Source of the DNA: Pseudomonadota bacterium
GTDB lineage: Bacteria; UBA10199; 2-02-FULL-44-16; JBDRGF01
Reading direction: 5' to 3'
Assembly (NCBI GenBank): GCA_043818055.1
Contig: JBDRGF010000003.1
Span: 1-56,564, forward strand
DNA length: 56,564 nucleotides
Position numbers and translations under genes: made by a program. Each line of letters opens with the position of its first letter. The stretch's first letter is position 1. Below the pieces are notes generated by a model, which was not told the origin of the DNA, searched no databases, and saw nothing but the letters and a program-made list of their open reading frames with translations. This document shows, piece by piece, positions 5,971-37,617 of this stretch.

Positions 5971-5994
5971 AAATAAGGGAGTGAATTGGTAGGA

Positions 5995-8739: not shown

Positions 8740-8829
8740 TGTTATTAATTCGTTATTTGTTTATAATTTTTAATAACATATGCCAATTTGCCCTTTTAAT
8801 CAACATATTCCGTCTTTCAAGGAGATACA

Positions 8830-9405: not shown

Positions 9406-9413
9406 TATCTCAT

Positions 9414-10709
9414 TTATTTCAATAGAATATCTACCCTTCTGTTTATTCCTTGACCTTCCAACGACATTTCTGAAGAAACCGGTTTTGTAGAACCATATGA
9501 TTCTACAACAATCTTTTCTCCATCAAAACCTTGTTTAATCAGATAGTTTTTTACCTCTTCGGCCCTTTGCAGAGAAAGATCGCTGTTATACACATTCTCC
9601 CCCCAAAGATCCGTATGTCCCTGCAGAATTATTTTTTGTGGATTCATTTGCATTAGTTCTTTTATGACTGGAGTTAAAAGATATTTCTGCTTCACCGAAA
9701 GCTCTGCAGAGTCGAATTTAAAATTAACGGTATGTAGAACTTGAGCATTTCCAGCATCTGCGTCTTTTTCTATTTTTTTGACATGTTTATCTTTCAATGG
9801 TGAAAAATTATAAGTCAGACCTGCAAATATACGATACGCAGGTGAGCCAACAGCGCTGGTCAATCCGAAACCTCCTCCTAATTCCACTATAAAATTTTTA
9901 CTGAGTTCTTTTTGAACACCGATATCCATTTCAATCGGTGTCATCATTTTAAAGCTTTCTCCCAGAACGCTCTCGCCAACCACTTGTGCGTTTATTGCCC
10001 ATGTATCTTTTTGCCACGGCAAACGATACCGGGCTGCAAGACCAAATGTCAGTCGATCGTCATCCACTATATTCCAAACTCTCCCGGTTGCAGGGTTGGT
10101 AAGCTGATGTCGATCTATAATCTTATAACCAAGATTCGCTGCGATATAAAAACGATTCAAATTTTTATCTACAATGGCACGAAATTCTGAAGTTACGCTT
10201 CCCTCCCCCGTGAATTTGCCTCTATCACCTGTCGATGCTGTCAGCCGAACTTGAAAGGCAACTCCTGGTATTTTATCTGATTCAGGTAGTCCCCTCACCT
10301 TTCCTTCAAAGGCGATATCACCAAGGCTTGTGGTGTGAAAGGAATTTTGCCTATCATCAGTCCCATTTTCGTAAAGGTTCAAAGGAATTTGCAGTCCCAC
10401 GTCAATAAATTCAAGTATTCCCAATGAAAATGATAAATCAGTCGTCCAAAGAGTTCCTACAAGATCAACGACACTGTTATTAACCGGATTACCCGCAGAA
10501 ATAAATCCACTACCAATATGAGTGTCTAAGCGAAATCTTGGTGTAAGGTGTCCTAGAGTTTGGGATCCATAGACCGAAAGCGAACCGCTACCGTCGGTTG
10601 TCAGGCGAAAATGCTGTACGTTGAAACCAGACAGATTTGTATCTGCAACGAGCAGACGAATAGGAAAGCTAAGAAAAATTATTAAAATGATAAGACGATA
10701 AAATCTCAT
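9414..10709 (-). CDS. Outer-membrane beta-barrel + OmpA_C protein (TraB-like architecture)
   Basis: Signal peptide; amphipathic beta-strands ending YRIFAGLTYNF; C-terminal VNFKFDSAEL...GHTD...N..LS.QRA..V...NRRVDI. Confidence 0.88.
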   Translation of the reverse strand: MRFYRLIILIIFLSFPIRLLVADTNLSGFNVQHFRLTTDGSGSLSVYGSQTLGHLTPRFRLDTHIGSGFISAGNPVNNSVVDLVGTLWTTDLSFSLGILEFIDVGLQIPLNLYENGTDDRQNSFHTTSLGDIAFEGKVRGLPESDKIPGVAFQVRLTASTGDRGKFTGEGSVTSEFRAIVDKNLNRFYIAANLGYKIIDRHQLTNPATGRVWNIVDDDRLTFGLAARYRLPWQKDTWAINAQVVGESVLGESFKMMTPIEMDIGVQKELSKNFIVELGGGFGLTSAVGSPAYRIFAGLTYNFSPLKDKHVKKIEKDADAGNAQVLHTVNFKFDSAELSVKQKYLLTPVIKELMQMNPQKIILQGHTDLWGENVYNSDLSLQRAEEVKNYLIKQGFDGEKIVVESYGSTKPVSSEMSLEGQGINRRVDILLK

Positions 10710-13700
10710 AATTTCAACTTCCTCTCCACTTCCCCCTTTCTAAATTGCCTCCTGATATAAATTCCTGAAAGCAAGAACAGGACAATACAGCCCATCGATC
10801 TTCCACCCTTTTCCTTTGTCAGAGAACATCCACCTTTTCCACCTACGACCTGCGTTGGATTGGAATCATCCGCTGGATTGTTGGGATCCGTTTCGCCTAA
10901 ATCAGGCTCATAAAGGCCATTCATATTCTTGTCTTCCGAACTATCTAACAACCCACCTGCATCCGTATCGGCCTTAGTAGGATCCGTAGTCGTTGTTGGA
11001 TCGCTATCCGCTATGAAATTTCCTATTTTAAGGTTAGTCGCTTTCAATGGGCCAATATCGTCAGGGTCGTTCGCCGGAGAAATAATCCCCATCTCAATGC
11101 CATCGCTTATACCATCATCATCGCTATCGCAATCTAAAGCATTGATAAATCCGTCACCATCGGAATCGATTAACGCCCCTTTTTCTGTTCCATCTATTAC
11201 TCCATCGTCATCGCTATCACGATCCAACGGATCAAGGCCGGCTGCCACTTCGATATCATCCGATAAGCCATCATCATCCGTATCGACAGCAGTTGTTGAC
11301 GACATCGAGAGTTTAACCGCATCGGAAGTACCAAGGGCAAGACTTTCCAATGTTTCGTCCAGCATAAATCTCAATTCTTCAACTTGAGGCAGGTCGCCCA
11401 GTGCAGACAGGTTCCAGATACAATCGAGTATCAGATCGATTCGCTCCTCAAAATTATCTTCACTCTTGTTATCCAAAGCGTCGAAGGCATCTATAAATTT
11501 GGAAATCAATGCCCAACCGCCATCAGTTATAGCATCGTTAGAAGACAGCTTTCTCATTAATACTAAAGCCTCTCTCCATGAGTCCTGCCAGGAATCGGCC
11601 ATTTTCAAGTCCTTATTCAATTTAAGCGAATAGACTAGGCCGTTATTCCATGTGGCTAAGGTATCAGCTGTAAAATGTATCTCACTGGATGAATTTGGCA
11701 GTCGAACAATGTAATTCAGATGACGTGTTTCATTCGGTTCCATATCGATAACCCATTTTGCGACCCCATCTGTCTCAAGCGCTTTGACCAATGTCGCACC
11801 GCCCTGCAAGAGGGCATCAACACCGATATTTATCGGTTCGGACCTGCTGTTTAGCACTACGTCCAGGGCCACGACTTCAAGCGGCGAGTATTTTTCCTCC
11901 ACACCTTTAATAGTAGATAACAGATCAACAAATTCATCTTTTGCTGTGTCTTTTTCTTCATCCTCCATGCCATCGATCCATCTTACAGGTTCATCAAGAA
12001 ATTGGATAAACTTGCCCTGTCCCAGAGTCTTATACTCACCATTATAGCGGCTTGCAGCCAATGCCTCAGAAGTTCTGAACTGCTTCAACATATTCTGCCA
12101 AGGCACTCCGGTAATGGAGTCAGGTTGGCTTAAATTGGCTAAGGTCAAACCGTTATGAACACGTTCTGTCAGTTCGCGATAGAGTTTATTATTGGATTCA
12201 GTTCCTTTAATTTCAAAATCGTCCTGATCTGTCACAATTAAAACGAGATCGAATTCATCACTTCTAAGCCCTTCTAAAAATTCTGACGCAGTTGTTGCAA
12301 TTTCATAATGCCATGCTTTAGTTTCAAATAATTCCATCAGAAACAGAGTTGTGGACGTTTGTGCGGGAATGAGCATCTTGATCGCATTTTCATCCTGAGT
12401 TGAATCAAGGTAATATATGAGGACACGTGGTGTTGTAGAAAATACAAGGCTGGCATCTATAGAATGGACATCTACGTTCTGCCTATGTTCATTTTCGCGA
12501 TTTCCAAGCAAATCTTTGCTCTGATACGATATCACATGAGAACCATCTGAAGTTCCGGCAAGATCGAAAGCCCCAGAATATGGCGTCCACTCACCTCCAT
12601 CGACACTGTATTCAGTCCTGTCAACGCCCACCAAATTATCCTTGGATGAAAGAGTGAACAGCGTGCTTGGAGAAATAATATTGATCTCTCCTGGAATCTG
12701 CTGATTCTGATCAATTGACGTTATCGGAGCCGTATTATCAACGACAACCTTAACTTCGATCTCATCGTCATTTTCATAATCGTCCGCTGCTAAAGCAGTG
12801 ATCGTATTGCTCCCCTCAGTCATAACGTTAAATGCAGGTGATGTGTATTGCGCAGGTGAATTTGGCGTATATTGAACCGGTGTTTCAGAACCGATTTTAT
12901 ATTCCACACGTGTGATATCCGGCCGGTTACTTTTAGCTACCAGTTCAATTGGTGTGCGTGATGTAATATAGAGATCTTTATTCTGCACTTTCGGTTCACC
13001 TATTGAAATATCGATCGTAGGTGGATGCCCATGTAGAATAAAACTGACGTTTTTTCCCGCTTCCCGGTTCGCGACATTGTCAACGCTCCAGTAGCTCATG
13101 CTATGAGACCCGTCTCCCATATCCCTGAATTCTATCGGCGATGTCCAGCTGACTGGTGTATTCGCATCTATTTGATACCAAACTTTATCCACTCCGGAAT
13201 GTTCATCCGATGCGTTGAGGACGAGCTTCGTCGCTTTTCCGGAAATATGTGTTTTTCCATCGATGACGTTTGCAATCCCATCCCAGGTCAGAGTTGTCGC
13301 TGGAGAAGTTCCATCGACTTTGAATGTCGCTTGTTTCGAGCCTTCCGGATTTCCGGCGTTATCCACGCTCCAGTATCTTAAGCTATGTTCGCCACTTGCT
13401 GTAAAATTCAAAGCTGATGTATATTGCGACGCAACTGGATCGGCATCCAAATTATAAAAGGTCGAAGCTACTCCCGATCCATAATCGATGGCATCAAATG
13501 TAATATCAGCGTTTGCAGCTATCCAATCTCCGAAATTACCTCCCTTTATCATTAATCGAGTAATTGGAGGAGTCGCGTCAAACGACAGCAGCTTCTCTAT
13601 AACCAACGAGTTATTGCCTGCCGGATCCTGTGCTACAAGCTGAATTTTGTAGCCTCCGTCAGGAAGCGCGTTGTGAGCGAGGTTTTTGCCGTTCCATTGC

Positions 13701-16700
13701 AAGGTCTTTTCATTCGGGGGAAGTGAAATTGTATTTTCAATCTCAGCCAATGTATTCTGGCTTGCTCCGACCACTTTTGCTGTAACCTTTATCCCCGATT
13801 GAGCCAGATTATCGCTCAAGGTATAATTCACAACGAGACCATTTGCGCTGGATAAAAATGAATCCTCATTTGAAAACGCAAGCATCGGGGGCGATGTATC
13901 GACAGTTACCTCACCGTTGATTGGATCAGATTTATTTCCCGCCTGATCCTCGATGTAGAACTCATAATTGTACATGCCGTCAGAAATTATACTCCCGCCA
14001 ATCCTTCCATCCCAATGAATAGATGTTTCGCCAGTTGTGATCGGCTGATGTTCCGCAGCCAGGTCACCATTCACCTTAAGAGTATAGAAGAGTCCTGTTG
14101 AAAACTGATCAGACAAGGCAACAGAAATGATCATTTCGTCCTTGATCTGATCACCATTTGGTGAAAATGTCTGATCGACAGAAACGAGATTTACAAGTGG
14201 CTTCTCCTCATCAAGCTTAAATTCCACCACTTGAGTTGTTTCGGCGTTGCCAACTTTGTCGATAGACCTAAATTCCAAATTCAGTAGTGTCGTTTTATCG
14301 ATCGAAAATGAGGTTGTATAATTCTTCCATCCTCCATCTCCTAATCTATATTCGATTCTCTCAACTCCACTTGAATAATCACCCTCATCAACAGCTTTTA
14401 GCGATATCAACGTGCCGTCATTAACAATGAAACTCTTGTCGCCAGCCTGATATGGTCCTTCCAGTGATATTTGTGACCTTGGAGGTTTGCTATCGATTAT
14501 GAACTTGAATTGTTTTACATCCTCATCCCGTTCATAGATATCTCTGCCATAATACTCTAGCATATGAATGCCAGACTCGTTACCTTCAAGAGCTAACGGC
14601 GTTCCATAACGATGAAATTCCGGTTCAGACATGCGATAGAAAATCTCAGTTACTTCCCTTTCCTTGTTCGAAGCCGCCAATATGATCGTAGCATCGGCAC
14701 CGACCCAGATTTCACCATTCATCAAATATGAACGACCATTGATTATAGCTTTTGTTCCAATTTCGGTGCTTCCTGAAGGGATTACATCGCTTCGCAAGAT
14801 CAGTGTCACCTTTCGTTCGCTTTCACGATTTCCTACATCATCATATGCCGCATATGTGATCTCGTGATTGCCTATCTCCTGGCCGGCCAATGTAAATGGC
14901 GAAACGTATTCAACAAATGAAGCGTCATCGATTTTATATTCAATTCTCGTTGTGCCGCTTGTCGTAGATGTTGCTAAGTCATCAGCTAAAAATGATATTT
15001 CACTATTTTCATTCGCATAGGCAGATTGTCCGTCGGATACAACGTTTCCATCCAACAACAGTTTTGTAAGCGGAGGATCCGTATCGAGGCTAATCGGTAC
15101 TTCCAGCGAATTCATGAAGCCGGCTACGTTTAGAACTTCAAAGACTACAGTATATTCGCCACTGGGAAGAGCCGTTTCCCAGTTGATATCGAACACTTGA
15201 TCTGTTCCCTCGTAGATCGTGGTTTTATCCATAACAGGATCGTCATTGCTGTAGTAGCTGATTCTCGTCAACTCCGGCGCAGGGCCTGATATAGATCCTG
15301 CAATATTCAAGGGTGCATTATAGACGGCATTCGGTTTTGGACTCACGATAGAGAAACTTGGTATATCCTTAGCTTCCTTCAACATGACATAGGTGGAAAA
15401 ATGCTCCAATGTAGCCGTTATGGTGAAAAACTTATTCGGATCTGGTGTATCACAGGTGTCGGCCGGTGGATTGACAGTTGAGATCAGTTCCAGTTCACCA
15501 TTATCCTTCAAATTATAGACTGTGATTTCAGCAGGATTGCTCCCGAAAGCATTCCAGACCTCTTCACATGTGAATGTGGTCTCCATTTGAACAGGGTGTT
15601 GAGGATCGATATCTATACCGTCCGGCTGGAGATTATAGACCGGTCCGACAGGAATAGTGCCTGAAGGAAGGTTCAGCGCCGGCAATAGTGGATCATTACT
15701 TTGAACGGGTGTCACCGACACAAGAGCCATTTGTGAATTATTCCCTAATGTCTGATCATCGAAATACAGTTTTGTTCTTCCGAACGCATCCCGAACTTGT
15801 ACATTTTCGCCTCGTTTTACCTCTTTACCCAGACCGATATTCATACTCGTCTCTTTTATCTCTCCCACATCGTTTTCAACACGAAGGAGTACAGTGTAAT
15901 TTTCGCCGTTGAGCTGTGTCACATCCCACCACCCTAAGATTCGCGTTCCATCGCTTTGAGGTTGAGAGAGTTGATTCGGAATATTTTGCCAAAGCTGTTT
16001 CCTGGAATCGTAATATTTGAGATCGTACTTGCTCGTTTCAACGTCACCACGGATTTCTATGAATCGCTTAGGCACTGCATTCGGTTTCAATTTTAGACGG
16101 AATGTATCAAGAGTATTATCGTTGAGCTCAGGAATCGCATTTTTGTCCTGATCTATTGTGGAATTGCCATGAATCTGTTTATCGACGACTTCAAAGGCAT
16201 TTACCGGTTCGCCGTTCGGATATTTCAATTCGATATTCCAATCATTGATGCGAACTATGTTGGAGAATGTATAGAGATCAGGATGAGCAGTCTTGGCTTC
16301 GTATGCATCATAGATTTTTATAGCATCTGATTTTATCCTGTAGTCCTGTTCGTTGAAATGCTCGAAAAGCGAGGATATCTTTCCGCCATCAAGAGAGGTA
16401 TCCTGATCGGTTGAAAATGTATTTTGAACAAATGAGGCGTAAATGTTTGGATTATTTGAAACGCAATTGCCTGTATCCGGACCTGATGAACTGCCCATCC
16501 ATAAATTCACGAAGGGAAGTTTTTTGAAACCGCTTTCGCAACTCGCAAATTCCAATTTACGATAAGCATTATTGAGTCGTTCGCGCACCTCGTATGTAAA
16601 GCTCTGTGATGTTATCGATACCGTGTCCCCCGCGCCCGTCCCTATCGAACCCGAGGGGAACGCCCCGAGCGCGCTAGTTCCTGAACTTTGCAAGTTGCGC

Positions 16701-19700
16701 GAAACCCAGCCCGTTTGGGTCGGCCCCCAATTTCTATCGGAATATGCAGTAGCCGGGCGAATTATAGTGAAGAAACCTTTTACGATAACCTGAGTTGGGT
16801 CCTCTGTCTCATTGATGGGGTTGCAAACAACTTTTAGCATAGGATTACAATTTACAACGATGGGTTCACGACGTTTAAATGTATAGTCAATGCGTTTGCA
16901 GTTCGGACAGGAAAAAGAGAGCGTTTCATCGGTATTGATGTGCTTTTCCCTATCGCTCGAAACAAAGGTATTAACCAACACGCCGCTTTCGTTGAACGCC
17001 TTTATAGTGATATCGTATTGGGATTGAGCCTGAGTCAAAGTAAATTGCCACCTATCGAATATGATGCTTTCCGATATCGTCCTGCTCATTTCAGTAGCCG
17101 GGGCGCAATATACTTTATAAACTCCCCAGTTGCACTGACGCTCTTCAAATACGGCGTTCTCCGTTCTTTTATCATCATAGGTATAGCTGTATCTCTCGCG
17201 TCCTTCCCCCCTGATATTATAATCGACATCCAGTACGATCCTCCCTGTCCCCTTAGCCTGCCAGTAAAAATCCGGATTTCCTTCCAAAGGAAAATCGTCG
17301 CTCGCATTATCATTATTTAACAAAATCCCTTTATCCTTGTCTGTAGTTGCATTCTTTTTTCCATCTCCGATGAGTTTAGCTATCGATGCCTTCAGATTAT
17401 CATTGTAATCAGGCGATGAAAGCACGATCGGGATTTCCTCTACTATATTCTCATTTCGTCCCAACTCAGTACCGATGGCCGTCAAGCGACAGATATAGTT
17501 GCCAAATGGAAGCATGAAACCGCTTGAATCAGTGCCATCCCAAACCGGCGGGAAATCACCGCTAACTTGGGAGAGATAGTCGGTTAAAAGCCGCTTTTTT
17601 AATGCGCCTTGTTCATTAAGTATCTCAAGCGTAACTTTAGCAGGCTTACTCAAGGCATAGGAAATCGTCGTAGAACGGTCGGGTAAATCAACGGATGAAT
17701 CCATCGGATTAAATTCATCTACAGAACTAACGAATTGAAGAAGTTTTAGAGTTTCGGCAAGCGAATCGTTGATATTGATAGAGACCTTAGCTGAGTCATC
17801 CCTGGCCTCTCCATAGCCGTCTATAGCTGTAGCTGTAATTTGTACGTTGTACTCTCCGTTTGGAAGCTCTCTTCCGAGATTATCAAGGCCATTCCAATTG
17901 AACAAGTATGTGCGCTCAGCGGCACGGTTCAAAAATGACTGTGTATAAACCACGTTAGAGCCGCTCTTATATATCGTCACATTTATATCGGCTGGCTTTC
18001 CTTTGAGCGTGTAGCTGATATTGGATTGCCGAACTCTCTCTGTGATAATGCTTGCTACCGGAGTAACATCAGTGATCTCTGGAAGGTTTAAGGATACGGT
18101 TCCTGTTCCACTGCCACTAGTTCCGCCACCCGTTGAACCGCTTCCTCCGGTTCCAGAACCCGAACCACCTGAGCCGGTAGCCGAAGCCAATCCATTTGCG
18201 ACATTCACATGAACAAAGTCATAACTAAAATGTTTCGTTCCACTCGATTCAGTGTCTATCACCTTGATCAAAATGGTATATTCGCCATTAGATAGATTGA
18301 GAGTATTCCAACTCCCCAGCAATCCGTGCTGCACAGGACTTACACCAACGTTGGAATTCGGATATACAGCATCATTAGGCTCATTATATTTGTTCGTAGG
18401 AGATTGTAAACGCATTGGCACTGAGATGGGTTGCCAACTTGATCCGCTATCCCCCACAGTTGCAACATCCTGATCGTTCACATCCCAAGTCCCTTGTCTA
18501 AAGTAGAGCTTATAAGATTCATAGTCAAAACCACTCTTGTTCTCGCCTATATTCGGATCTGCCGAGACACCCTTGATTCCGATCGTATCCCATATTTTAG
18601 TTTCAGTTTCCGGAAACTCGATCTTAGCCTTAATTCCAAACAGAATGGCCTGAGTTAACGCTTCTGAGATCAAACCATCTTCGGAGGTAGCTGTGACTTT
18701 GAGAATATAAAGACCTGAATCCAAAGGCTTGTCATCCTCTTTAGTCAACGTTCCCCTTGTATCGATACCATCCCACTTTTCGATATGATGTCCTAATGAG
18801 AGGGCTTTGCTATCTACGAGGGTGGAGATGAAACGGCCATTGGAATCTTTAATGTCAATATTGATAGCAGCATCCTCTGAAAGATCGAAATGAATTTCGG
18901 TCTCATCATTCACTCCATCGTCATTTGGAGTAAAAACCAAAGGTCGTGCTGAGAGCGCTGTGATAGCAACCGCTTTCGCATAGTAGAATTCTGCACGGCG
19001 ATCGTATTCATGAACATTCTGTCCCAGTTCAAAAACTGCAAAGTTTTTCAGGCTGGATAAATATGATGTGAAAAGATCCCATCCGGTTGCGGAACTGAAT
19101 GCGCCGTTGTAAAGATCGTTCACTATTTTGCCAACAGATGGAGCTTCGAATTCACGATAATTAGCAGATTTCTGCCAGCCAGTCAAAGGTGAGCCCTCTG
19201 TATTATAAGCGATGACATCTCCATCTGACAAAAGAGTTATAAGATCAGGCTTACCATCAAGATCGACATCACCTACCGTTACGCCTGACAAGATTGTAAA
19301 ACCATCAGGTGCTGAGATAGCTCGAATCAACTCACCATTATGATCAACAACCAAAATCTGACTCTCAGTAGCGAAAACCAAATCATCAAAGCTATCTCCG
19401 TCTAAATCTGAAGAAGTTGGTTCACCAACAACTCTCTTACCATCGGGTATAACAAAGAAAATTGAATGTGCCAGACTGGAATTCCAAACATATATAGTAT
19501 CGTCATTTACTGCGTAGAGTTTTTGCCGTCCGAGATTATCAAGATCAGCAAGGAACAAATTAAAATCTGACGATAAGTCTGGAAATTTAAAATTGCTATC
19601 AACCTCTCCAGTCTCTTTCAATACCGTAATCTTATGATCAGAAGTTGCAGATATAGTTTCAAACTGACCATCTCCATCCAAATCTGCCAAAAGTGGAGTC

Positions 19701-21389: not shown

Positions 21390-21391
21390 TT

Positions 21392-22981: not shown

Positions 22982-22986
22982 AATCT

Positions 22987-28700: not shown

Positions 28701-31700
28701 TATTTTGATAGCGATACTCCGTGCGATTTCCCTCTGGTTTAGTTTCCGAGGTCACTAAACCATCCAAATTATACGTATATGAAGTAACAAAGCTTGCCGG
28801 ATCGTCAAAGCGCATTCCCCGAGTAAACTCAGTTACCTTGAGAGGATTGCCCTGACAGTTAAAACTTAGTCCTTTTTGATTGCCATTGCGATCGATCACA
28901 GTTGTACGGCTCACCTCCATGGATGGATCGGATTCTGGCGTACAGGTGTAAAATTCGCGCTTTCTATAATATGTGAAATCAAAAGCCTTGCTTCCCAAAT
29001 ATTGCTTCACCACGCGATCGGTCGAGCTGTATTCGTTCTTGAGATATGTCTGGCCAGCCGGATCTGTGACGGTGAGCAGGTTATGTTCATCTGAATATTT
29101 GTATCGGGTAATTTTACCATCGGGATAGCCATCGACTATCGGCGAATGAACAGCGATCAGATCGCCTTTATCGTTATAATCAAAACGCACCGTGCGACCT
29201 GAAAAATCGATGATGCTGGTAAGCTTGCCGGGCGCATTATATTGATAATCGATAACTCTTCCAAGGCTATCCGTTACGCTGTCCAAAACCGTCTCATCAC
29301 CTACTTTTGTATATTGAAAGGTCAATTGGTTCTGGTTTCTGTCTTTAATAGATGAAATGAAGCCATCTGTGCGATATTCGTAGATCGTACCATGCGAATC
29401 TCTTATTTGATAGGTGCCATCATCCCTTTTGATCAGACGATCGAATCTTCCCGCTGGCGCTACATATCGATTTGCTTTGAGTGTATAATCGTCATATCTG
29501 GCATCGCCATCGAATCTGCGAATTTTGAGTCCTGCATCCATCTCTACGAGTCGCATGTTGTAATTGTGATCCCAACCATATCCCAATGGACCATCGTAAT
29601 CGAGGCGACTGCGGTATGTTCGTTTGAATTCATAATCGATACCGCGTCCCGGTATTTTTAGATCAGTCGCAACCTGCAACAGATCGCCGCTGAATAGCAT
29701 CACCGGATCGGCGACGGTATTGTTCGCTGTAATATTTTGCATCGCCCCCTGGACTAGTGCTATCGGCGTATCATCCTGTTGATTGAAGCCCAGAGGCATG
29801 TTTATCGTCGTAGGAGGTGGAGGTGTACTACCTCTTCCAGTAAAGGTATCTTCCGATGAAGATAAATGAAATGGTTCAAAGGTTCTGTTTACAGGGTTAG
29901 CCGCAACAACGGGAGAGCTGACCGGTAAACCTATATTTGTAAAAGATGTTCCTCCAGCTATATCGGAGGTCACAGAATTTCCATAAACATCATTATAGCT
30001 CGGAAACTGATTAGATGAATTCAGAGGATTGGTGTTGATAGGTGAAAAACTTGATGATGAGCTCATAGAAATATCAAAACCTAATCCGTAACCATTACTT
30101 GCACCGCCATCCAAGGCACCACTACTGCCGTCACCATTTCCAGAGGTACCCGTGTAATTATTGCCAAATCCACCTCCGGAATATCTACTGCCAAGCTTAG
30201 CATTGTAGAGGCTATTTCCTCCATCTGTGCTCACAAATGTTCCACCATTGCCTATGCTGATGCAAAGTCTGTTGCTCATGCAACCGTTATTGCCGACCTC
30301 TCCGGTTTCAATCGGCTGTCCATGGCTCGGGGTTGTGCCTGAATTGATCCCAATCCGTCCTCTCCAACCTTGATCGTCATCTATATCCGGTGATGACCCC
30401 GTATATGAGAAGCTCACTACATACGCGTCGCTTCCACCCGAAGCAAACTCTTGTGAAAGCATTCCACCTGCGGCAACAAGCCCTACATATAGACCTGCCG
30501 ATGGATTTCCCGTTATTACAGCAGTGAGAGTTCCAGTAACTACACCGATAACGACCTTGAGGATCTTTTTCGCTATACTTCCCATTCCCATATACTCTTC
30601 ATTGCAAAGAGCGTTGTTGCGCGCAAATATGTAGTGATTTATGCCATCTTCCATCGGATCGCGTGTTATGAAGCGGCCTGTTTTAGCATCATAGTAGCGG
30701 GCACCGTAATAGAAGAGGCCAGTTTCATTGTCATATTCCTTCGAATTAAAGAGATATTTGTTTTTGGTCAATCCAAGTCGGAAATTGACATTGCCGAATG
30801 GATCGTAACGGAGAGTTTCTGTAACTCTTCCCTTGTCATCCGTTGTATGAATGAGGTTGGCCATTTCATCTAGATGATTGAACTGAAATTCCTCGTTCTC
30901 AAACGCTGCGATCCTCCGTCCGCCAAGATAGATAAAGAGCCTTTCAATTTCACCCTTTCCATTGAATTCGACCATGGGCTCTGTGGATTTTCCATAGATA
31001 TAATATTGTTTCGTCTTCCCGTTGACTTTCTTTTCCGTTCTACGTGAGGCGTAATCATATGTGAATTCCAGATTCAGATTTGAGTTCTTTTCATCCTTCA
31101 ATGTTGTCTTGGTCAAGCGATCCTGAAAATCATACTCAAAGGTTTTGTGAAATGATTCTTTTCCGGCTTTTTTCTCCACTTCATCGATGAGGTTCCCGCG
31201 AATATCATATTTTTGGGATCTCTCTACTTGAGATCCAACCCTGACCTTTGTCATCATGCCAGTTGTATATTCATATTGTTCATTTTTGTATGCGTCCGAA
31301 TACGATATTCTGTTTCCATCTCCATCATAAGAATATGATTGTATATTGTATGGAGTATTTTCCTCCGGTCGAAAATATCTTGCCTCTATCAATTGCTTTA
31401 GCCCATCATATTTGAATTCAACCTTTGAGCCGTCCAGATAAGTCATTGAACTCTTGTTCCCCCACATGTCATATGTGTAGGTCAATTGATTTATAATCTC
31501 GTTCTCTCGCGCAATTTGTATTTCAATTACCTTTCCAAATGAATCGTATGTGTAGCTGTTCACTATTCCGTTGCCGTATTTTATTTTCTGCAGATTTCCT
31601 GAATCGTCATAGCCGATTTCAGCAATGAGTTTCCCTTGAGTAGATCCCATTCGGATTTCACTGACGCGGCCATGATCATCGGTCAGGTAATAAACTATAG

Positions 31701-34700
31701 TACCATCGGGATAGCCGATCCAATATGTTGTTCCGAAGCCGTCTTCACCATACTGGATGGAATCGGATAATTCAGTCCCCGGAATATCCTGAGATATTTT
31801 ATTCAAAATTCCATCTGGAGAATATTTAAACTCTGTACGGCCAAAGGCATCTATGATTGCGGAAACATGTTGATCCGCATATTCAACCTTGTAATCATTA
31901 AGCTCTCCACCACCGATTCCCGGATAATCAACATTGGTCAAACGATGATCTGTATCGTAGTTAAATTTGGCAGTAACAGAACCCAATACTGAGTCTTGCA
32001 AAACGAGACTATCCAGCAAACCATTCTCATTTGAAATATTGTTCATTTCGACTTTATCGCCGTTAGGATAAACTCTTCCTTTTAATCTCTGATAATGGTC
32101 ATAGGTATTTTTAGTAATCATTCCTTCTGGAGATTTGATCTTGATGAGATTCTCAAATTCATCAAACTGATAGTCGGTTGTCACAGGACTTAAATTTCCA
32201 CCCGGATATTGAACTGAACGGATCACCTTATCCTTGGCATCGCGATAGTGTGTGGCATATAATTGACCATTATAGAGGATATCGAGCTTATGGACGAAGC
32301 TGTTATTCAAAGTGGTTGGTTCATATGAATAGGTGACATCCTTACCACCAGGATAGGTTATAGATCTTACACGATCCAGACCATCATATTTAAAATTATA
32401 ACGCTTCTCACCCGGAAAGACTATGGTTGTTGCCATTTTATTCTGTCCGTACGAGTAGCGTGTCTCATTCTCACCCTTCTTCAGGAGAGTTAATCGGTTT
32501 ATTCCATCGAAATACCTTGTTGTAATACGATGTTGATTGCGAGCTGAATCAAATATATCGGTAGAGATTTTATTTTCCTGAGTTGAGTTGTCCAATCGGT
32601 ATCTCTCACCATATTGATGTGCAACATATGAATTATTGGGATAATCAACCCGAGTCAACTGACCGACATCATTGTATTTATAGTTAATCGTTCTACCATC
32701 CTGATCAGCAATGCTAATGAGCTTGCCTATGTTCTCATCATATGTGAGAGTTGTCTCTCCGGATTCATTCTTTATTTTATGCAGGAATGTTCCTTTATAA
32801 TATTCAAATTCATCCTTAGAATTATCGAGATTTGTTTCCTTGACGATATTTCCATCCGCATCAAAACAATATTCCTTGATGATCTCCTCATCCTGCGCAT
32901 TTAGACGAACGCTGATTCTATTTATTTTTCGCTTTGAAAGCGCTGCACCTGAACATATATCTGCACCAGTGCTGTGATAGATGATCTCTATTGTATCTTT
33001 TCCTCCATCTGCATTTCTTTTTGTTCTCGTTACTTTACGAACTATCTGTTTGAGACTATCTGCAAGGATGGGATCTTTGATTCCCTGGGCATCATCATAT
33101 TTGAATGTTATTATGTTCCCAAGCTCGTCAGTGTAGGAGGATACCCTTCCACTATCATCGTATGTATAACTTTTTTCGAAACTCACTCCTTTTTCTGTTG
33201 TTATCACCTTTTCCAATCCATCTACGACCTCCCTGCCATCCCTTTTCGATATCTTCCATGTATAATCATCGACAACTGCATTTGCCTGGCCGGGGTTGAG
33301 CTCCCTTCGTATGAGAAGCGGGATTTTATCGAAGTGATTGACGGAAAAGATGATACTATACTTCATGTGTTGCATCACTTTCTCAAAATCGCTCAATTCA
33401 TTGGAAAGTTTTATTATTTTATGAATATACTTATAGACAGAACCATCACTCTTATAAATCTTTGTTACAATTCCTTCATTCTCAGAGCGATCAATCGTGA
33501 TATATTTTTGATAGTAAATTGAAGCATCCCTATCATCGGGAAACTCTGTCGTCAGGATTTCACTATGAGCGATATCGCCATAGCCTTTGACTGCCTCATA
33601 TCGCATGACGCCGCCGCTTGGATATCGGATTTCCACAAAGGTGTCTGGAACCTTTTGATTGAAATTCCAGTGCCGGACAAGTGGCAGGTTTGATTCGGCA
33701 GGCGAATACCTGATCGTGGTTTCGCGGCCCGCAGGGTCGATTATTTTACCGATTCGATTAGCGCTGCTATAATGATACCCCCACTTCTTGTTATTGGGCA
33801 TTTGAAGATAGACGATGTTGTTCGGGTCAAAGCTCATATCAATATTGCGATCCACAGTGTCTTTTATGCGCATCCAATAATCCTTTTGATATGAGTTTAA
33901 TGAATGATCATATGTGATCGAATGATCATGTTCATCCCTCTCTTCCGATAACATGTAGAGGCTGATATCCCAATGAGGGATGTGGTCGATGCGGTTTTTG
34001 TAAAAATAAATTCCATATTTAGTATATATCGAGCAACATTTAGGGCCTGCTCCACCATTCGGGCATTTACAGCCCATGCCGGATTCACAAGATCCATCGC
34101 TGCACCCATCTATAACATCTATATATTTTGTCATCAATTGTGAGTAGATGGTGTATTTTTTAAAGCGATTAAAAATATACTTTCCCCCGTCGATTTCGTT
34201 CAAGATTAGACGATCAAGATTTAATTTATGCGCGTCATTATAGACAAGAGAGACAGGAAACGCTGATTTTATAAGCTCTACCGTTCCTGTGATACCGATG
34301 CCTTTTTTCAAATTTTCTTGGGCGAAAGCATTCGTGCTGAAAAAATCATCTGCTGTTTGCATTGGTGTGTCGACTCTGTCATTTCCAGAATAAAACTCCA
34401 GGGCTCTTTGATTATAACCATCTGTATAGCCCATTCGACGGCCTGTTTTATCAAAGACATCGTAGCTTCCATCTGCTTTTAAAAGGAACACCATCATCTC
34501 AGTCGGATTTTCAACGTCCATTCGTGAAAAGGGCATGACATTGCGAAAGACAACGGCTGCAACGTATTTGCCACCTGCGAATATCCAAGTATCATTGGGA
34601 GGTGTCCATACCAGGTTATCGCCATTTGATTTGATCGCTCCAAGAGGATAGATTTCTTCTTTAAAATTCATTTCCTGAGGAGTGCCGAGAAAATACTCCT

Positions 34701-37044
34701 GAAAATATCTTTTATCCCTATGATCCAATAGTTCAGAGGCATTGTTGGCAGTAGAAATTTCCATTTGCAGTTCATTTTCTGAAATTTCCTGCATACGAAA
34801 TTGTTCGATGTTGGCCATAGAGCCTGCCTCACACCCAACAGTGTTCACTCTTTCACTATCTTTCTTTAAAAAATCCCCCCAAAGCCCGTAATTAAGCGCT
34901 GCGCAAACGAGATGCGCATTTATATTTTCACCAACATAGTATTTATCATTGCTCACCGGATATTTCAGTGTCCCGCTTAGGGTGTTTTTCCATGTCCCTT
35001 CTGTTGTGCTTGTTGTACCTATATCATCAGTCTCTGTCGAACTTTCATCATCTTTAACAATTTCACCCAATACCTTATTTTCTGGTTCTTCAGGTTCTTC
35101 AGGCTCTTCTGTACTTTCTTCAAAAGTCACAATCTCTGTAAACTTCTTCGGATTTTCATATCCTGTGAAGATACTCTTATCTATCACAACATCCCTGTTT
35201 TCCGTGGAGCGCGGTGAGACATATGATCGTGTTATCTCAACATCCATTCCTCCCTTGCCCGGCAGCACCAAATCTGTATAGCTCAAATTAAGACTTCCAT
35301 CGGCCAGATTAACAGCTTCACCGTTGGAATAATACTGAAATGGAGTATATGCATTTGAACTGGTTTGTGATCTCGCTGTCATTGGGATTATCAATATCAC
35401 AATGACGATTAGATATTTATATAATGGAATAAATTTTTTAAAACGGAATGATTTGAAAAATGAAACTAATGTTTTAATTTCGACTTTGATCAAACTCAAT
35501 ATCAATAATGCTGTGAAGAAAAATATCGCAATCCAGATCGGAACATCTCCCCAAAATGTGTAGAGAGAAAAAGTATGATATGGAATGAGACTTGCGTTGA
35601 ACCACTTGGATCCGTTTTTGGTATCCAGCTCTTCAAGGACTTTTCCGGATGGAGAAACGACTGTTGAAATGCCCTGATTGGCAACTCTGATGAATGAAAC
35701 CCGATTTTCTATTGATCTGAATATAGAATGAGCTCTGTGTTGCAAAATACCTGAAGATTTCGCATACCACCCATCATTTGAGAGATTCACAATAAATTTG
35801 GCACCCTCAACCACCCATCTCCTTGTGAGCGGAGGAAAGATATCCTCAAAGCATATCTGCACACCAAATTTAATGCCGTTTAAATAAAAGAGCTTAAATT
35901 TTTTGCCGGGTTCGGTGTCTATATCCGATGCGAATGCATATTTGATGAACGGAAATTCATCGGGAATATACTCTCCAAGTGGGACGAGATGCGTCTTGTC
36001 ATAGCTGTTTCTTATATTATCCTGTTCGACGAGCAACGCGCTATTCCATTGTTTTTGCATATCTTTGGGAAAGAGTGTCATGCTTCCTAGAAGTATTGGT
36101 GAACTCAGACTCGGTACGATATTTGATGGCATCACTTTTAAATCGCGGCTGATATGGTAAGGTATGGCTGTCTCTGGCCATACGATCATATCCGGACCTA
36201 AGTCTGCGGCCTCTAGTGTCAGAGTTTTATATCGCTCTATGATTGATTCGCTATATTTTGGATCCCACTTTTCCTTTTGTGAAATATGACCGGGAATTCC
36301 AATAATTTTTATCGCCTGATTATTAGAGTTAAAATGCTCGACCTGGGCGATACGAAGCACACCATAAGTGAGGTTAACAATTAAAAGAATGGCAACAACG
36401 ACAAAACTACGTCGAGCTAATCTCATCTCATTGAGTACGAATAATCGAATTCCTTCATAAATCAGAACATTGACAGTTATAATCAAAAACGAAATCCCCA
36501 AAACACCAAAAATATCCGCCGATTGAATTAAATAGAGATAGCGCTGTTGGCTGTAACCCAGATTGATCCATGGAAATCCTCCCAGCGGGAAAAAATTCGT
36601 GAGATATTCGAAGAATATCCAGGCAAGGGGGAGAACTAAGAAAAGTGGGAATTTAGTGCGTCTATTTATGTGTATAGCTGATGTAAATGCCAGGCCTATG
36701 TATAGAGCAATCATAAAGACCACAAACCCGAGACACGCCAGGCTCGCTATGGAGGAATACCCTGCACTGTGATGAAGCGCCGAATATATCCACGATAAGG
36801 AAAACGAAGAAAATACGATCCCAAAAACAAAGCTTTTTTGAAAAATCCCCTTTAGAGAACTTCCATGTATTGAGAATAATAACGGCAGTAAACCGACCCA
36901 GGCCAAAAATGCGAGGTTTGGAATTGATTTGCCCAAAATTACAATAGGAAATGAAAGGGCTAAGACTATTCCAGAAAGAAGAGGCAAAAGTTTCTTTCTC
37001 AACAAAACCAGTTCTAATTTTCGCGCAATTAGCGCTTTTAACAT
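24670..37044 (-). CDS. Fusion of apolipoprotein N-acyltransferase (Lnt) and a double RHS-repeat protein with a variable C-terminal domain (4124 aa)
   Basis: One uninterrupted ORF. N-terminal ~520 aa carry Lnt motifs (GGFPW..LGYSQ, WPETA, YDKTHLVPLGEY, QICFEDIF, NLSNDGWY, RSIEN...RVANQGIS). Two DUF6531-like starts, YD repeats and two RHS-associated cores follow. Confidence 0.9.
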   Translation of the reverse strand: MLKALIARKLELVLLRKKLLPLLSGIVLALSFPIVILGKSIPNLAFLAWVGLLPLLFSIHGSSLKGIFQKSFVFGIVFSSFSLSWIYSALHHSAGYSSIASLACLGFVVFMIALYIGLAFTSAIHINRRTKFPLFLVLPLAWIFFEYLTNFFPLGGFPWINLGYSQQRYLYLIQSADIFGVLGISFLIITVNVLIYEGIRLFVLNEMRLARRSFVVVAILLIVNLTYGVLRIAQVEHFNSNNQAIKIIGIPGHISQKEKWDPKYSESIIERYKTLTLEAADLGPDMIVWPETAIPYHISRDLKVMPSNIVPSLSSPILLGSMTLFPKDMQKQWNSALLVEQDNIRNSYDKTHLVPLGEYIPDEFPFIKYAFASDIDTEPGKKFKLFYLNGIKFGVQICFEDIFPPLTRRWVVEGAKFIVNLSNDGWYAKSSGILQHRAHSIFRSIENRVSFIRVANQGISTVVSPSGKVLEELDTKNGSKWFNASLIPYHTFSLYTFWGDVPIWIAIFFFTALLILSLIKVEIKTLVSFFKSFRFKKFIPLYKYLIVIVILIIPMTARSQTSSNAYTPFQYYSNGEAVNLADGSLNLSYTDLVLPGKGGMDVEITRSYVSPRSTENRDVVIDKSIFTGYENPKKFTEIVTFEESTEEPEEPEEPENKVLGEIVKDDESSTETDDIGTTSTTEGTWKNTLSGTLKYPVSNDKYYVGENINAHLVCAALNYGLWGDFLKKDSERVNTVGCEAGSMANIEQFRMQEISENELQMEISTANNASELLDHRDKRYFQEYFLGTPQEMNFKEEIYPLGAIKSNGDNLVWTPPNDTWIFAGGKYVAAVVFRNVMPFSRMDVENPTEMMVFLLKADGSYDVFDKTGRRMGYTDGYNQRALEFYSGNDRVDTPMQTADDFFSTNAFAQENLKKGIGITGTVELIKSAFPVSLVYNDAHKLNLDRLILNEIDGGKYIFNRFKKYTIYSQLMTKYIDVIDGCSDGSCESGMGCKCPNGGAGPKCCSIYTKYGIYFYKNRIDHIPHWDISLYMLSEERDEHDHSITYDHSLNSYQKDYWMRIKDTVDRNIDMSFDPNNIVYLQMPNNKKWGYHYSSANRIGKIIDPAGRETTIRYSPAESNLPLVRHWNFNQKVPDTFVEIRYPSGGVMRYEAVKGYGDIAHSEILTTEFPDDRDASIYYQKYITIDRSENEGIVTKIYKSDGSVYKYIHKIIKLSNELSDFEKVMQHMKYSIIFSVNHFDKIPLLIRRELNPGQANAVVDDYTWKISKRDGREVVDGLEKVITTEKGVSFEKSYTYDDSGRVSSYTDELGNIITFKYDDAQGIKDPILADSLKQIVRKVTRTKRNADGGKDTIEIIYHSTGADICSGAALSKRKINRISVRLNAQDEEIIKEYCFDADGNIVKETNLDNSKDEFEYYKGTFLHKIKNESGETTLTYDENIGKLISIADQDGRTINYKYNDVGQLTRVDYPNNSYVAHQYGERYRLDNSTQENKISTDIFDSARNQHRITTRYFDGINRLTLLKKGENETRYSYGQNKMATTIVFPGEKRYNFKYDGLDRVRSITYPGGKDVTYSYEPTTLNNSFVHKLDILYNGQLYATHYRDAKDKVIRSVQYPGGNLSPVTTDYQFDEFENLIKIKSPEGMITKNTYDHYQRLKGRVYPNGDKVEMNNISNENGLLDSLVLQDSVLGSVTAKFNYDTDHRLTNVDYPGIGGGELNDYKVEYADQHVSAIIDAFGRTEFKYSPDGILNKISQDIPGTELSDSIQYGEDGFGTTYWIGYPDGTIVYYLTDDHGRVSEIRMGSTQGKLIAEIGYDDSGNLQKIKYGNGIVNSYTYDSFGKVIEIQIARENEIINQLTYTYDMWGNKSSMTYLDGSKVEFKYDGLKQLIEARYFRPEENTPYNIQSYSYDGDGNRISYSDAYKNEQYEYTTGMMTKVRVGSQVERSQKYDIRGNLIDEVEKKAGKESFHKTFEYDFQDRLTKTTLKDEKNSNLNLEFTYDYASRRTEKKVNGKTKQYYIYGKSTEPMVEFNGKGEIERLFIYLGGRRIAAFENEEFQFNHLDEMANLIHTTDDKGRVTETLRYDPFGNVNFRLGLTKNKYLFNSKEYDNETGLFYYGARYYDAKTGRFITRDPMEDGINHYIFARNNALCNEEYMGMGSIAKKILKVVIGVVTGTLTAVITGNPSAGLYVGLVAAGGMLSQEFASGGSDAYVVSFSYTGSSPDIDDDQGWRGRIGINSGTTPSHGQPIETGEVGNNGCMSNRLCISIGNGGTFVSTDGGNSLYNAKLGSRYSGGGFGNNYTGTSGNGDGSSGALDGGASNGYGLGFDISMSSSSSFSPINTNPLNSSNQFPSYNDVYGNSVTSDIAGGTSFTNIGLPVSSPVVAANPVNRTFEPFHLSSSEDTFTGRGSTPPPPTTINMPLGFNQQDDTPIALVQGAMQNITANNTVADPVMLFSGDLLQVATDLKIPGRGIDYEFKRTYRSRLDYDGPLGYGWDHNYNMRLVEMDAGLKIRRFDGDARYDDYTLKANRYVAPAGRFDRLIKRDDGTYQIRDSHGTIYEYRTDGFISSIKDRNQNQLTFQYTKVGDETVLDSVTDSLGRVIDYQYNAPGKLTSIIDFSGRTVRFDYNDKGDLIAVHSPIVDGYPDGKITRYKYSDEHNLLTVTDPAGQTYLKNEYSSTDRVVKQYLGSKAFDFTYYRKREFYTCTPESDPSMEVSRTTVIDRNGNQKGLSFNCQGNPLKVTEFTRGMRFDDPASFVTSYTYNLDGLVTSETKPEGNRTEYRYQNMNTGEPAVDKLYVANRIEERKIPDSVRGGSPLITKYAYEPVYNQIKEITEPGNATSTFHFDYQENSTVAILAAKMGVTENIAQTLLTGLTISMGDINDDQKTNQIAGNMLRKDLPAITRADGTVELLSYRYQYNQFGQRTVKEDPDSSRDEYQYDNSGYLAKVIQGAGKENVVNLYEHDSVGNITAFVDGNSNRYEYTINPLNQVVAEKMPSTFNIVRTIKYDGNDNPIQIDEPNLDDKGNPIDGNPTITTQLKYDMLNRLTARTQEVAQNKNVLTEYRYDANENLTRIIQPEGNSIAIKYDERDLPYQTTHGFGSQDASTFTIAYDGNKNRIAIEDGEGNEAKYIYDGFDRLIQEIDASGSKTEYSYNDRGDRTAILKKGKPDGQSSTEVSLQNISLLYDEIGRLVQKEEAVLDAGTLTGKRTTKYEYSGNNQISKLVDALGNSTTYTYDGLDRVTKSIDPKGNEIETTYDDNGNISKQISREVDDITNTKVEYASSIIYDSLNHPVTLTDNLGHMKQHRYDSRGNLLYTSDSNDTLGVDLGPNQGEGNITRFSYDGLGRLIQQIQELTDNGAGSGSKTGEIVTKYAWDTNSRLASITDAKNHTTEFTYDALNRRIKTIMADGSAYQSKYDRNSNVIETQDPAGFIVNFVYDSSNYLTQKRIELGSTYIGSELFEYNGVGNMVKAVNMDDSDQTISTVLQTYDSLGNLLKEEQNGKSVTSKYDIKGRRERLTYPSGKVLNFTHDTIDRVTNIDDTKIGKLSQMTWINRGQVGKMEYLNGTSVTKEYDKLKRTIKHINQFADQSIIAGFESAYDKADNRLYDDFVHNANKGNAYSYDSLSRLTQVAYDLSVPKTNFSNPQSGTYSTSEAFAMDSLHNWVTKTKRLDSQDPTKKLTTTFISNDMNAYLTAVTTETAEQKDYHYDVNGNMKDDDRFKYTYDYRNYLIEVKDKATDQQVASYQYDALGRRISKSVSNVTTTFIYDGVNVIEEQVGGKTSATFTSLPLYKGELEGVGVDSIISMERDNNIYYYHTDTSGNIVALTDSKGALVERYSYSAYGEVEIHDAGGALLAQSGVDNPYLYAGREYDPETNLYYNRARTYNPELGRFMQQDPLGFVDSLNRYAYVMNNPINFVDPFGLARMAGGATYNGDVMQYLSDWTNEAARISFENAQRSTDIFSYSLNTINHAVYGTANFLMPTQEEMFAIAASGGGSVISYGASRMNFATRSAIDIADNAWLRTAPIILNAGEKILSNYLQNSQTYNQVAKGVVSGVLAGLTDQKTGLPPTSNDAISYWVSFTIERYVEFFTSIDLSKDMIKSYINENNNFILRNNVSEHMNTIQPRKD
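35480..37044 (-). other. lnt: Lnt domain of the fusion protein
   Basis: Nitrilase-fold Glu-Lys-Cys triad motifs all present, plus the N-terminal TM bundle and final TM helix. Confidence 0.92.
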
Positions 37045-37168: not shown

Positions 37169-37185
37169 TGCAACATCCATGCCAA
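37169..37185 (-). promoter_or_regulatory. Sigma-54 (-24/-12) promoter of the Lnt-RHS operon
   Basis: Minus strand TTGGCATGGATGTTGCA, near-consensus, GG-N10-GC. Confidence 0.82.
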
Positions 37186-37595: not shown

Positions 37596-37617
37596 CGAGA
37601 TGAAAAATGACACGGTT

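Follow-up and report, generated by a model that had tools for sequence, protein, structure and literature searches.

The window analysed here, a stretch of 56,564 nucleotides, is an entire contig (C3; JBDRGF010000003.1) of a Pseudomonadota bacterium of assembly GCA_043818055.1, a genome (G000) of 2.93 Mb in 166 contigs that is 93.6% complete. Positions 9414–37044 carry 12 open reading frames (ORFs) on the minus strand, and we lean towards reading them as one cluster with a σ54-type promoter, encoding a Sec-exported polymorphic RHS toxin system of an uncultured lineage that is independent of type VI secretion (the T6SS). By its domain composition gene 1 encodes an RHS protein of giant size whose two complete shells lie in tandem, the second being canonical. 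The last two genes encode a giant surface protein with a Cys tail, here called the adhesin, and an outer-membrane barrel protein resembling TraB. As judged from the genomes compared, RHS, adhesin and barrel genes are inherited together, usually side by side, and the core of the system probably consists of these three and an immunity gene, with an apolipoprotein N-acyltransferase (Lnt) and two lipoproteins as likely accessories of one subclade.

Inheritance of the RHS, adhesin and barrel genes

The phylum comprises one class with 93 species genomes, in which adhesins were searched for with a profile of the N-terminal 400 residues (E ≤ 1e-20), and an ORF was counted as double-core RHS if it has two Rhs cores, or more than 2900 residues with a first core before the contig ends. 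An Rhs core was found in 45 of the 93 genomes, an adhesin orthologue in 12, and double-core RHS ORFs in 10 (seven complete, three ending at contig ends). All 10 genomes with a double-core ORF also have the adhesin, and such an ORF is present in none of the 81 genomes without adhesin, 35 of which have single-core RHS. The genomes are relatives of one another, and the counts are therefore not independent events.

RHS and adhesin genes are adjacent and on the same strand in eight of the 12 adhesin genomes, namely G000, G005, G008, G017, G031, G054, G063 and G060, and the barrel gene is found directly behind the adhesin gene in nine loci. The order is RHS, adhesin, barrel, except in G031 where it is adhesin, barrel, RHS. 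For G010 and G014 the contigs end too soon to show whether RHS and adhesin are adjacent, and the flank of 2.7 kb in G082 contains ORFs that resemble a toxin domain and an immunity gene. For a relative's adhesin, P0004, and the Lnt-RHS protein P0002 the longest contig listed is in each case one of 34199 bp, so that the two are probably on one contig. In G092 the adhesin lies three genes from a single-core RHS of 2370 residues. An earlier interpretation made from the letters of the window (the sequence-only reading) had proposed these components as parts of one system that should be met with elsewhere, and since they do co-occur in other genomes the proposal holds on this point.

Motif scans for relatives of the adhesin, which were too strict for those of the G031 type in genome contigs, gave three loci in genome contigs and 33 in metagenome contigs; most of the metagenome matches are generic FG-GAP sequences, and the true adhesin relatives among them are L045–L049 and L051. 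In G060 (C21; L085 13918–15082) the adhesin orthologue is broken by a TAG stop and the preceding RHS is in pieces with a single core, and this locus may be decaying or may contain assembly errors. Contig C59 (1–13083) of the window's genome carries an RHS-like N-terminal fragment with a signal peptide, cut by the contig end, which adjoins Tad/Cpa-type pilus genes.

The double-shell RHS protein and its toxin domain

Gene 1 matches the RHS repeats (PF05593) with E 1.3e-88 and TIGR03696 with 131 bits over two stretches, and each of its Rhs cores is preceded by more than 1000 residues of YD repeats. The motif PxxxxDPxGL has a catalytic role in Rhs autoproteolysis. The second core (25291–25545, with TIGR03696 at residues 3834–3918) ends in NNPINFVDPFGL, which fits this motif, and in the first core (30601–30807) the corresponding sequence, NNALCNEEYMGMG, is degenerate. 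The second shell shows 35–38% identity to the orthologues of G005, G008 and G031. Between the shells a glycine-zipper-like hydrophobic stretch (residues 2160–2179) is followed by a linker of about 290 residues rich in G, S and N, a layout that is kept in P0002 and P0003. An AlphaFold2 model of residues 558–1150, built on a four-row alignment, had a mean pLDDT of 42.3 and was unusable. In the protein database the double-RHS family comprises 13 clusters at E ≤ 1e-65, after which the scores drop to 1e-31.

The C-terminal toxin domain has no Pfam or NCBIfam match, and an Atlas search yielded no lead, the best score (0.89) and the recognition (1597) both being under the marks of the tool. A similar toxin sequence is found in G054 together with a homologue of the presumed immunity gene imm1. 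No description of a tandem two-shell Rhs protein, of an Lnt-RHS fusion, or of the combination of double-shell RHS, adhesin and barrel was found in the literature searched, and the excerpts consulted of the 2012 survey of polymorphic toxins contain no passage on FG-GAP, N-acyltransferase or tandem RHS.

The Lnt domain and its junction with the RHS part

Residues 24–476 of gene 1 match LNT_N and CN_hydrolase (Pfam) and score 299.3 bits with TIGR00546 against a cut-off of 132.9, and the domain aligns to solved Lnt structures with E 3.3e-33. The catalytic residues of Lnt are E, K and C; all three fused copies retain the motifs WPE, K(x)HLVP and IC(F/Y)E, and the Lnt of gene 1 looks catalytically intact. 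The fused domains (n = 3) form one clade with support 1.0 on a long branch of a small tree, and have 27–34% identity to housekeeping copies. With one LNT_N match in the genome, gene 1 could have been its sole Lnt, but this is ruled out by a C-terminal fragment of a second Lnt at the end of contig C39, which groups with the housekeeping copies in the tree.

P0002 (3995 residues) has LNT_N, CN_hydrolase and RHS domains and is 47% identical to gene 1 over residues 1–620, and G010 encodes on C17 a 52% identical Lnt-RHS protein and additionally an ordinary Lnt of 526 residues. An ordinary Lnt was found in all of the 40 relatives searched and the fusion in one of them. Within the RHS family the fusion is present in three of the 13 protein clusters, and in P0003 (G082) the Lnt is cut down to a stub of its first helix (LSGILLALSFP) ahead of a signal peptide, indicating that Lnt can be lost. 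The private Lnt of the sequence-only reading is thus a paralogue separate from the housekeeping copy on C39, as had been supposed, but it does not belong to the core.

The same junction between Lnt and RHS occurs in P0002 and in the protein on C17 of G010, and an assembly artefact is ruled out by the recurrence of this in-frame junction in three assemblies. Where Lnt is absent, the RHS orthologues have at their N-terminus an ordinary signal peptide that looks cleavable, and no lipobox is found in any of the RHS signal peptides examined. From these features we infer that the RHS part is exported to the periplasm and freed by signal peptidase. Sec export, which had already been proposed, is in prediction borne out by the Sec-type signal at the junction and by the signal peptides of the orthologues. 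A lipoprotein-exchange route had also been considered, but the RHS protein is not a lipoprotein, and exchange of the myxobacterial type therefore fails to explain its delivery.

The surface protein and the barrel protein

Pfam and NCBIfam recover all the domains that had been claimed for the cluster, that is Lnt, RHS, FG-GAP, FlgD_ig, Big, TSP3, and OmpA with a barrel. The adhesin, whose family has five further clusters in the protein database, ends in GGCSL, a short helix and RRQFRK. G-G-C-x-L is invariant in all eight aligned tails and is followed by a helix and a basic cluster in five, the other three ending 4–8 residues past the Cys. No TraA or MYXO-CTERM match was obtained in an NCBIfam scan of the whole protein, and five adhesin tails, scanned with NCBIfam to E 10, matched no curated CTERM model and gave only insignificant JDVT/Heimdall-CTERM matches. 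Of the supposed likeness to a MYXO-CTERM tail there remains a Cys-containing signal made of the same three parts, but the curated models do not recognize it, and the supposed likeness to TraA falls away, as the adhesin is not a homologue of TraA. Myxosortase belongs to the CPBP family, and CPBP/Rce1-like proteases were matched twice in the genome (C32 and C68) and nowhere in the window; the family was found in 11 of 14 control genomes.

The barrel protein matches Phenol_MetA_deg and OmpA in Pfam. The TraB model NF033763 aligns with its barrel (model positions 16–307, E 4.6e-11) and with its OmpA domain (389–496, E 3.4e-14), and the score of 92.6 bits is far under the cut-off of 700 bits. Judged by these alignments the protein is a distant full-length homologue of TraB and no orthologue, and the porin can be called TraB-like as the sequence-only reading did. 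An AlphaFold2 model with a mean pLDDT of 61.8 shows 12 strands besides an OmpA-like domain, and a Foldseek search with it placed FapF on top (E 7.8e-11, target TM 0.63). At the sequence level a profile of the barrel alignment matched OmpA domains alone among solved structures, and neither a barrel nor FapF. A PTG motif is present in six of seven barrel orthologues, the window protein having STG, and no plug helix or N-terminal coiled coil was recognized.

In P0004 the adhesin and the barrel form one ORF, where the tail helix of the adhesin runs into the signal peptide of a barrel part with 46% identity to the window protein over 426 residues. This is the second fusion of the type membrane helix, then internal signal peptide in the lineage, beside Lnt-RHS, and the two in-frame fusions indicate that the lineage tolerates polyproteins with an internal signal peptide. 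In G054 (L082:4982–4994) the genes for adhesin and barrel share a frame, and one stop codon and one codon stand between them.

A predicted complex of the barrel protein with the last 200 residues of the adhesin had a median score of 0.57 (runs of 0.69, 0.57 and 0.52) with a best control of 0.00, a partner pLDDT of 56 or more, and 58% or more of the contacts common between runs. Among solved complexes 116 of 157 attain the mark used for such predictions, as do 2 of 215 mismatched pairs, but only 18 of the 157, and both mismatches, did so with scores of 0.60 or less.

Three further barrel-OmpA paralogues are encoded on C2 (41128–53001), C122 (14825–20872) and C101 (44218–50817), and the TraB model aligns with both parts of these as well. 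Those on C2 and C122 lie directly behind genes for large secreted proteins with Cys tails, of which the one on C122 ends in GCGCS...RRRRR and the other belongs to a TSP3/lipase-like cluster. Three more proteins, encoded on C29, C75 and C141, close with GKCSL, a helix and basic residues, and these ends together with the tails on C2 and C122 suggest a C-terminal sorting signal used throughout the lineage.

Immunity genes, orphan modules and accessory genes

Four small membrane-protein ORFs alternate with ORFs for toxin domains, and all four are presumed to encode immunity proteins. The product of imm1 is presumed, from its position and from a homologue with 53.5% identity behind the RHS gene of G054, to be the cognate immunity protein of gene 1. 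Orphan module 1 is 76.5% identical to residues 3744–3923 of gene 1 (tblastn) and matches TIGR03696 with 79.8 bits, and orphan toxin fragment 3 shows 59% identity over 34 residues to part of the toxin domain of orphan 1. We infer by analogy that the toxins are membrane-active from the periplasmic side, as proposed for Tse5 in the excerpted text of PMC10684867.

In the core arm of orphan 1 (23935–23968, minus strand) there is a short in-frame GC-rich element, cattgcgaggagcgcagcgacgcggcaatcc, and gene 1 has no insert at that place. The stretch is common to many unrelated contigs of three runs in which both flanks diverge (loose ends at 23934–23968), and it looks like a small dispersed repeat.

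The lipoproteins had been taken for a core part of the system, which the other loci contradict. RHS, adhesin and barrel are present without Lnt or these lipoproteins in the loci of G005, G008, G031, G054 and G063, and lipoprotein homologues are limited to G010 (with L045 and L046) and G082. The homologue of lipo1 (29% identity) is located immediately ahead of the adhesin on C92 of G082, and that of lipo2, with a canonical lipobox, ahead of the adhesin in G010 and L045/L046. In G005, G008, G017 and G054, relatives without Lnt and lipoproteins, a large S8 subtilase is encoded between the RHS array and the adhesin, and that of G005 has a Cys tail of the same kind as the adhesin. The secretion by FapF likewise requires a dedicated protease, according to the part of PMC5557850 consulted. 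As the accessories vary among loci, Lnt, lipoproteins and subtilase should be regarded as lineage-specific additions to the core.

Table 1. Coordinates of the cluster features in the window, and of the subtilase genes in related loci
Feature	Position	Strand	Residues	Description
σ54-type promoter motif TGGCATggatgTTGCA	37169–37184	−		125 nt upstream of the ATG of gene 1
Gene 1	24670–37044	−	4124	Lnt-RHS protein
Lnt paralogue	35455–37044	−	gene 1, 1–530	ends in the last transmembrane helix
Lnt/RHS junction	35371–35454	−	gene 1, ~531–558	basic loop (KSFRFKKF) and signal-peptide-like hydrophobic helix ending MTARS (hydropathy, sequence)
First RHS shell	30580–35370	−	gene 1, ~559–2155	DUF6531-like start, YD repeats, first Rhs core
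Inter-shell segment	29710–30579	−	gene 1, ~2156–2445	from hydropathy and sequence
Second RHS shell	25273–29709	−	gene 1, 2446–3924	DUF6531 (2446–2516), YD repeats, Rhs core
C-terminal toxin domain	24670–25272	−	~200	Gly/Ala-rich
imm1	24435–24668	−	77	two transmembrane helices (hydropathy); 1 nt past the toxin gene
Orphan module 1	23216–24433	−	405	RHS core fragment and a different C-terminal toxin domain
imm2	22987–23223	−	78	two transmembrane helices
Orphan module 2	22307–22981	−	224	YVMNNPINFIDPFGLARMAG arm retained, then a new C-terminal toxin domain
imm3	22067–22306	−	79	two transmembrane helices
Orphan toxin fragment 3	21636–22073	−	145	no core arm
imm4	21392–21685	−	97	membrane protein
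lipo1	20871–21389	−	172	predicted lipoprotein; lipobox-like FTSC; glycine-zipper-like second hydrophobic stretch (hydropathy)
lipo2	20092–20874	−	260	predicted lipoprotein; LQSC, then a poly-Gly run
Adhesin (giant surface protein)	10706–20095	−	3129	signal peptide, FG-GAP propeller region, FlgD_ig/Big/OmpL47-type domains, TSP3 repeats (Pfam, NCBIfam)
TraB-like outer-membrane protein	9414–10709	−	431	signal peptide, predicted 12-strand COG4313/FapF-class barrel, OmpA-like domain
S8 subtilase, G005	L028:5178–7706
S8 subtilase, G008	L030:13996–17916
S8 subtilase, G017	L042:2163–6041
S8 subtilase, G054	L081:13006–15966

Organization, promoter and surroundings of the cluster

According to the ORF list of the window the neighbouring genes are separated by gaps of 1, 1, 5, 0 and 2 nt or overlap by 8, 7, 50, 4, 4 and 4 nt, where the overlap of 50 nt becomes 8 nt if a later ATG is taken as start. 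The consensus TGGCAYN5TTGCW has a single exact match in the window, TGGCATggatgTTGCA, against an expected number of 0.12, and at least one match was found in 12 of 100 shuffled sequences. The sequence-only reading, which placed 12 genes with spacings of 0–5 nt or overlaps behind one σ54 promoter, agrees with these coordinates and with the motif scan. The motif is also found upstream of the cluster in G008, G017, G031 and G092. Sites that could divide the cluster are not enriched within it, with 50 promoter-like sites against 41.7 expected and 8 terminator-like sites against 12.3. The locus has a GC content of 0.421 and the genome 0.433, which disfavours a recent horizontal island.

The stretch is present in DNA runs labelled groundwater metagenome and biofilm metagenome. 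In a metatranscriptome library assembled contigs cover 28 of the 30 bins of positions 9001–29000, all except 9001–9667 and 24342–25008, and one contig spans the junction of adhesin and barrel. As the library may contain DNA this is no more than a weak hint, and contigs cannot demonstrate a single transcript.

To the left of the cluster the minus strand at 80–4562 carries a gene for a transporter of the major facilitator superfamily and three for radical-SAM proteins, of which two have SPASM domains, and these may form a peptide-maturation cluster or an island; the GC content of positions 1–9413 is 0.347 against the 0.433 of the genome. A second σ54-like motif, TGGCACGGTAAATGCA, with one mismatch, is found at 5602–5617 (minus strand), 24 nt upstream of an ORF of 178 residues (5042–5578) that has no family match. 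On the other side, the otherwise AT-rich intergenic region that separates the cluster from a histidine kinase gene contains, upstream of the σ54 motif, a GC-rich direct repeat, gacgggggaaggtgccc, in two copies about 50 nt apart at approximately 37500–37600 (minus strand), which might bind a regulator or be a further small repeat.

Secretion systems and relation to known systems

The genome, at its 93.6% completeness, gave no match to TssC/VipB, Phage_GPD (VgrG), PAAR or Hcp, and no VgrG, PAAR, Hcp, TcA-type or CdiA/TpsB family was seen among the 29 window ORFs scanned (12 in the cluster and 17 others), in agreement with the absences stated by the sequence-only reading and with the independence from T6SS that it left to be checked. 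The genome search for TpsB/ShlB (PF03865) also gave no match, but the control matched in no genome either and the search is uninformative. The shells of gene 1 each have their own core, unlike the shell that is split between TcB and TcC.

The nearest functional precedent is found in Rhs4 and Rhs5 of M. xanthus, which in the portion of the review consulted (PMC10433427) are described as proteins of about 4000 residues with a signal sequence, acting in kin discrimination independently of T6SS and thought to be located at the surface, with the delivery route open. The giant size, the signal sequence and the independence from T6SS are shared with the window protein. Neither is among the 41 matches to the window RHS, however, and the likeness is taken from the review's description; unlike Rhs4 and Rhs5, the window family is limited to one uncultured lineage, where it has 13 protein clusters.

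With TraA/TraB the cluster shares a Cys-tailed surface protein followed by a barrel-OmpA protein, with the TraB model aligning to both domains of the latter, and a connection with polymorphic toxins directed at neighbours exists in both systems (PMC10433427, same portion). The adhesin differs in being built of FG-GAP, Ig and TSP3 domains with no MYXO-CTERM match, and the toxin is a soluble RHS protein and not a lipoprotein. The Rhs effectors of T6SS, such as RhsA and Tse5, have in common with gene 1 the RHS shell, the DUF6531 start, the DPxGL core, the variable toxin domain and the adjacent immunity gene, but in the window protein an N-terminal Sec signal takes the place of the PAAR or clade domain and two shells are joined in one polypeptide, and no T6SS parts were found in the genome. 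Tse5 is a pore-forming toxin thought to act from the periplasmic side, according to the excerpts of PMC10684867, and would by analogy fit the Gly/Ala-rich toxin domains and membrane immunity proteins of the window.

FapF, the outer-membrane transporter of functional-amyloid polypeptides in Pseudomonas, is the best structural match of the modelled barrel, which is predicted to belong to the same 12-strand COG4313/phenol-meta-pathway class; the consulted part of the FapF paper (PMC5557850) gives a COG4313 phenol-pathway channel as the nearest structure and points out the PTG motif. The window barrel differs in its C-terminal OmpA domain, the lack of a sequence match and the absence of a recognizable coiled coil or plug helix, its model having the pLDDT of 61.8 given above. 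The array behind gene 1 resembles the orphan arrays of Rhs and CDI systems, where a full-length gene is followed by core-arm fragments with new toxin domains and their own small immunity genes (a concept found in the excerpts of PMC3150448), with the difference that the four immunity proteins of the window are all small membrane proteins.

A possible mechanism and its alternatives

Taken together, the balance tips slightly towards a Sec-dependent RHS system that needs no T6SS, and whose conserved partners, the Cys-tailed giant protein and the TraB/FapF-like barrel, would give contact, passage of the outer membrane, or anchoring. Signal peptidase would release the RHS protein into the periplasm, and the barrel protein would hold or pass the tail of the surface protein. 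The adhesin/barrel pair would then make contact with another cell and offer a route for the RHS protein into the periplasm of that neighbour, whose inner membrane would be harmed by the toxin domain unless an immunity protein with two transmembrane helices is present. In a bolder form, which we regard as possible rather than likely, the Cys-tailed protein and the barrel would constitute a dedicated contact-and-passage device for a double-shell Rhs toxin, and with it a new T6SS-independent way of delivering Rhs proteins by contact in didermic bacteria. In that same tentative proposal a membrane-insertion segment would be protected by the first, non-cleaving shell, in the way that a shell of the teneurin type allows the chain out, and the second shell would carry the toxin; the barrel family, TraB included, would more generally be the partner of Cys-tailed surface proteins.

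Several observations weigh against a system in which RHS protein, adhesin and barrel act together. Display or delivery of the RHS protein by the pair is presumed, as is its contact with either of them, and signal-peptide cleavage, toxin activity and immunity are likewise read from the ORFs. The mean pLDDT of the barrel model is low, and the score of the barrel/adhesin complex falls in the weak range, where predictions are more often wrong unless the pair was likely beforehand. The barrel gene is not directly behind the adhesin in G092 and on C92 of G082; in G092 the double RHS is on another contig than the adhesin, beside a gene for a σ54 activator. The σ54 motif is present at just five of the 10 loci checked, the window included, and G010 has no match. 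Other signal-peptide RHS proteins of the genome (C88, C62 and C59) are located away from any adhesin. The paralogous barrels of C2 and C122 pair with Cys-tailed proteins where RHS is absent, indicating that the barrel may serve the adhesin alone, and the three secretins of the genome make a type II route possible for the RHS protein.

An explanation that we hold to be unlikely, though to be taken seriously, is that two independent units do no more than share an island and a regulator: an RHS array whose products leave by a general route (type II, vesicles or lysis), and a separate surface-adhesion module with a TraB-like anchor that attaches to surfaces or cells. The barrels behind Cys-tailed proteins without RHS, the single-core signal-peptide RHS without adhesin in this genome and single-core RHS in the 35 adhesin-less genomes, the separate double RHS of G092 and the secretins would all be expected of two such units. 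Against them are the strict phyletic match, the adjacency kept in eight of 12 genomes from several families in spite of the changed order in G031, the overlap of stop and start codons through the whole window cluster, and a GC content so near that of the genome that the locus does not have the look of a recent hitch-hiking island. The exchange device supposed by the sequence-only reading, of TraA/TraB type and for lipidated cargo, with a private Lnt that matures the lipidated components, has in its favour the alignment of the TraB model with both domains of the barrel protein, a tail with the three parts of MYXO-CTERM, a pair in traAB-like order, two lipoprotein genes with an intact-looking Lnt paralogue in the cluster, and a CPBP-family protease gene in the genome, but that family is near-ubiquitous in the controls. 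It is nevertheless improbable: Lnt is fused in three members only and a stub in P0003, five loci have the core without Lnt or lipoproteins, the RHS signal peptides examined have no lipobox, the adhesin and its tail match neither TraA nor a curated CTERM model, and the TraB score is far below its cut-off. We give as little credence to a weapon against other species, prey or host, in which the giant protein would bind the foreign cell and the immunity genes would just protect the producer. One relative bears the depositor's label Pseudobdellovibrionaceae bacterium (taken as deposited), a family whose cultured relatives are predators, the genomes are small (1.1–4.6 Mb), and C59 has an RHS fragment next to genes for a Tad-type pilus; orphan arrays and toxin/immunity modules common to distant relatives are, however, a hallmark of competition among relatives.

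Significance

It is an open question by what way large Rhs toxins with signal peptides, in the absence of a T6SS, get out of a didermic cell and into a neighbour, and Rhs4 and Rhs5 are a known case of it in the excerpted review (PMC10433427). The cluster supplies concrete candidate partners co-inherited with one Rhs family of this kind, the giant surface protein and the TraB-like barrel, and the question thereby becomes testable. The two in-frame fusions, Lnt/signal peptide/RHS and adhesin tail/signal peptide/barrel, matter for the annotation of such genomes. TraB, whose molecular role is unclear, gains a family context, that of a predicted 12-strand barrel of the FapF/COG4313 class which recurs beside Cys-tailed surface proteins.

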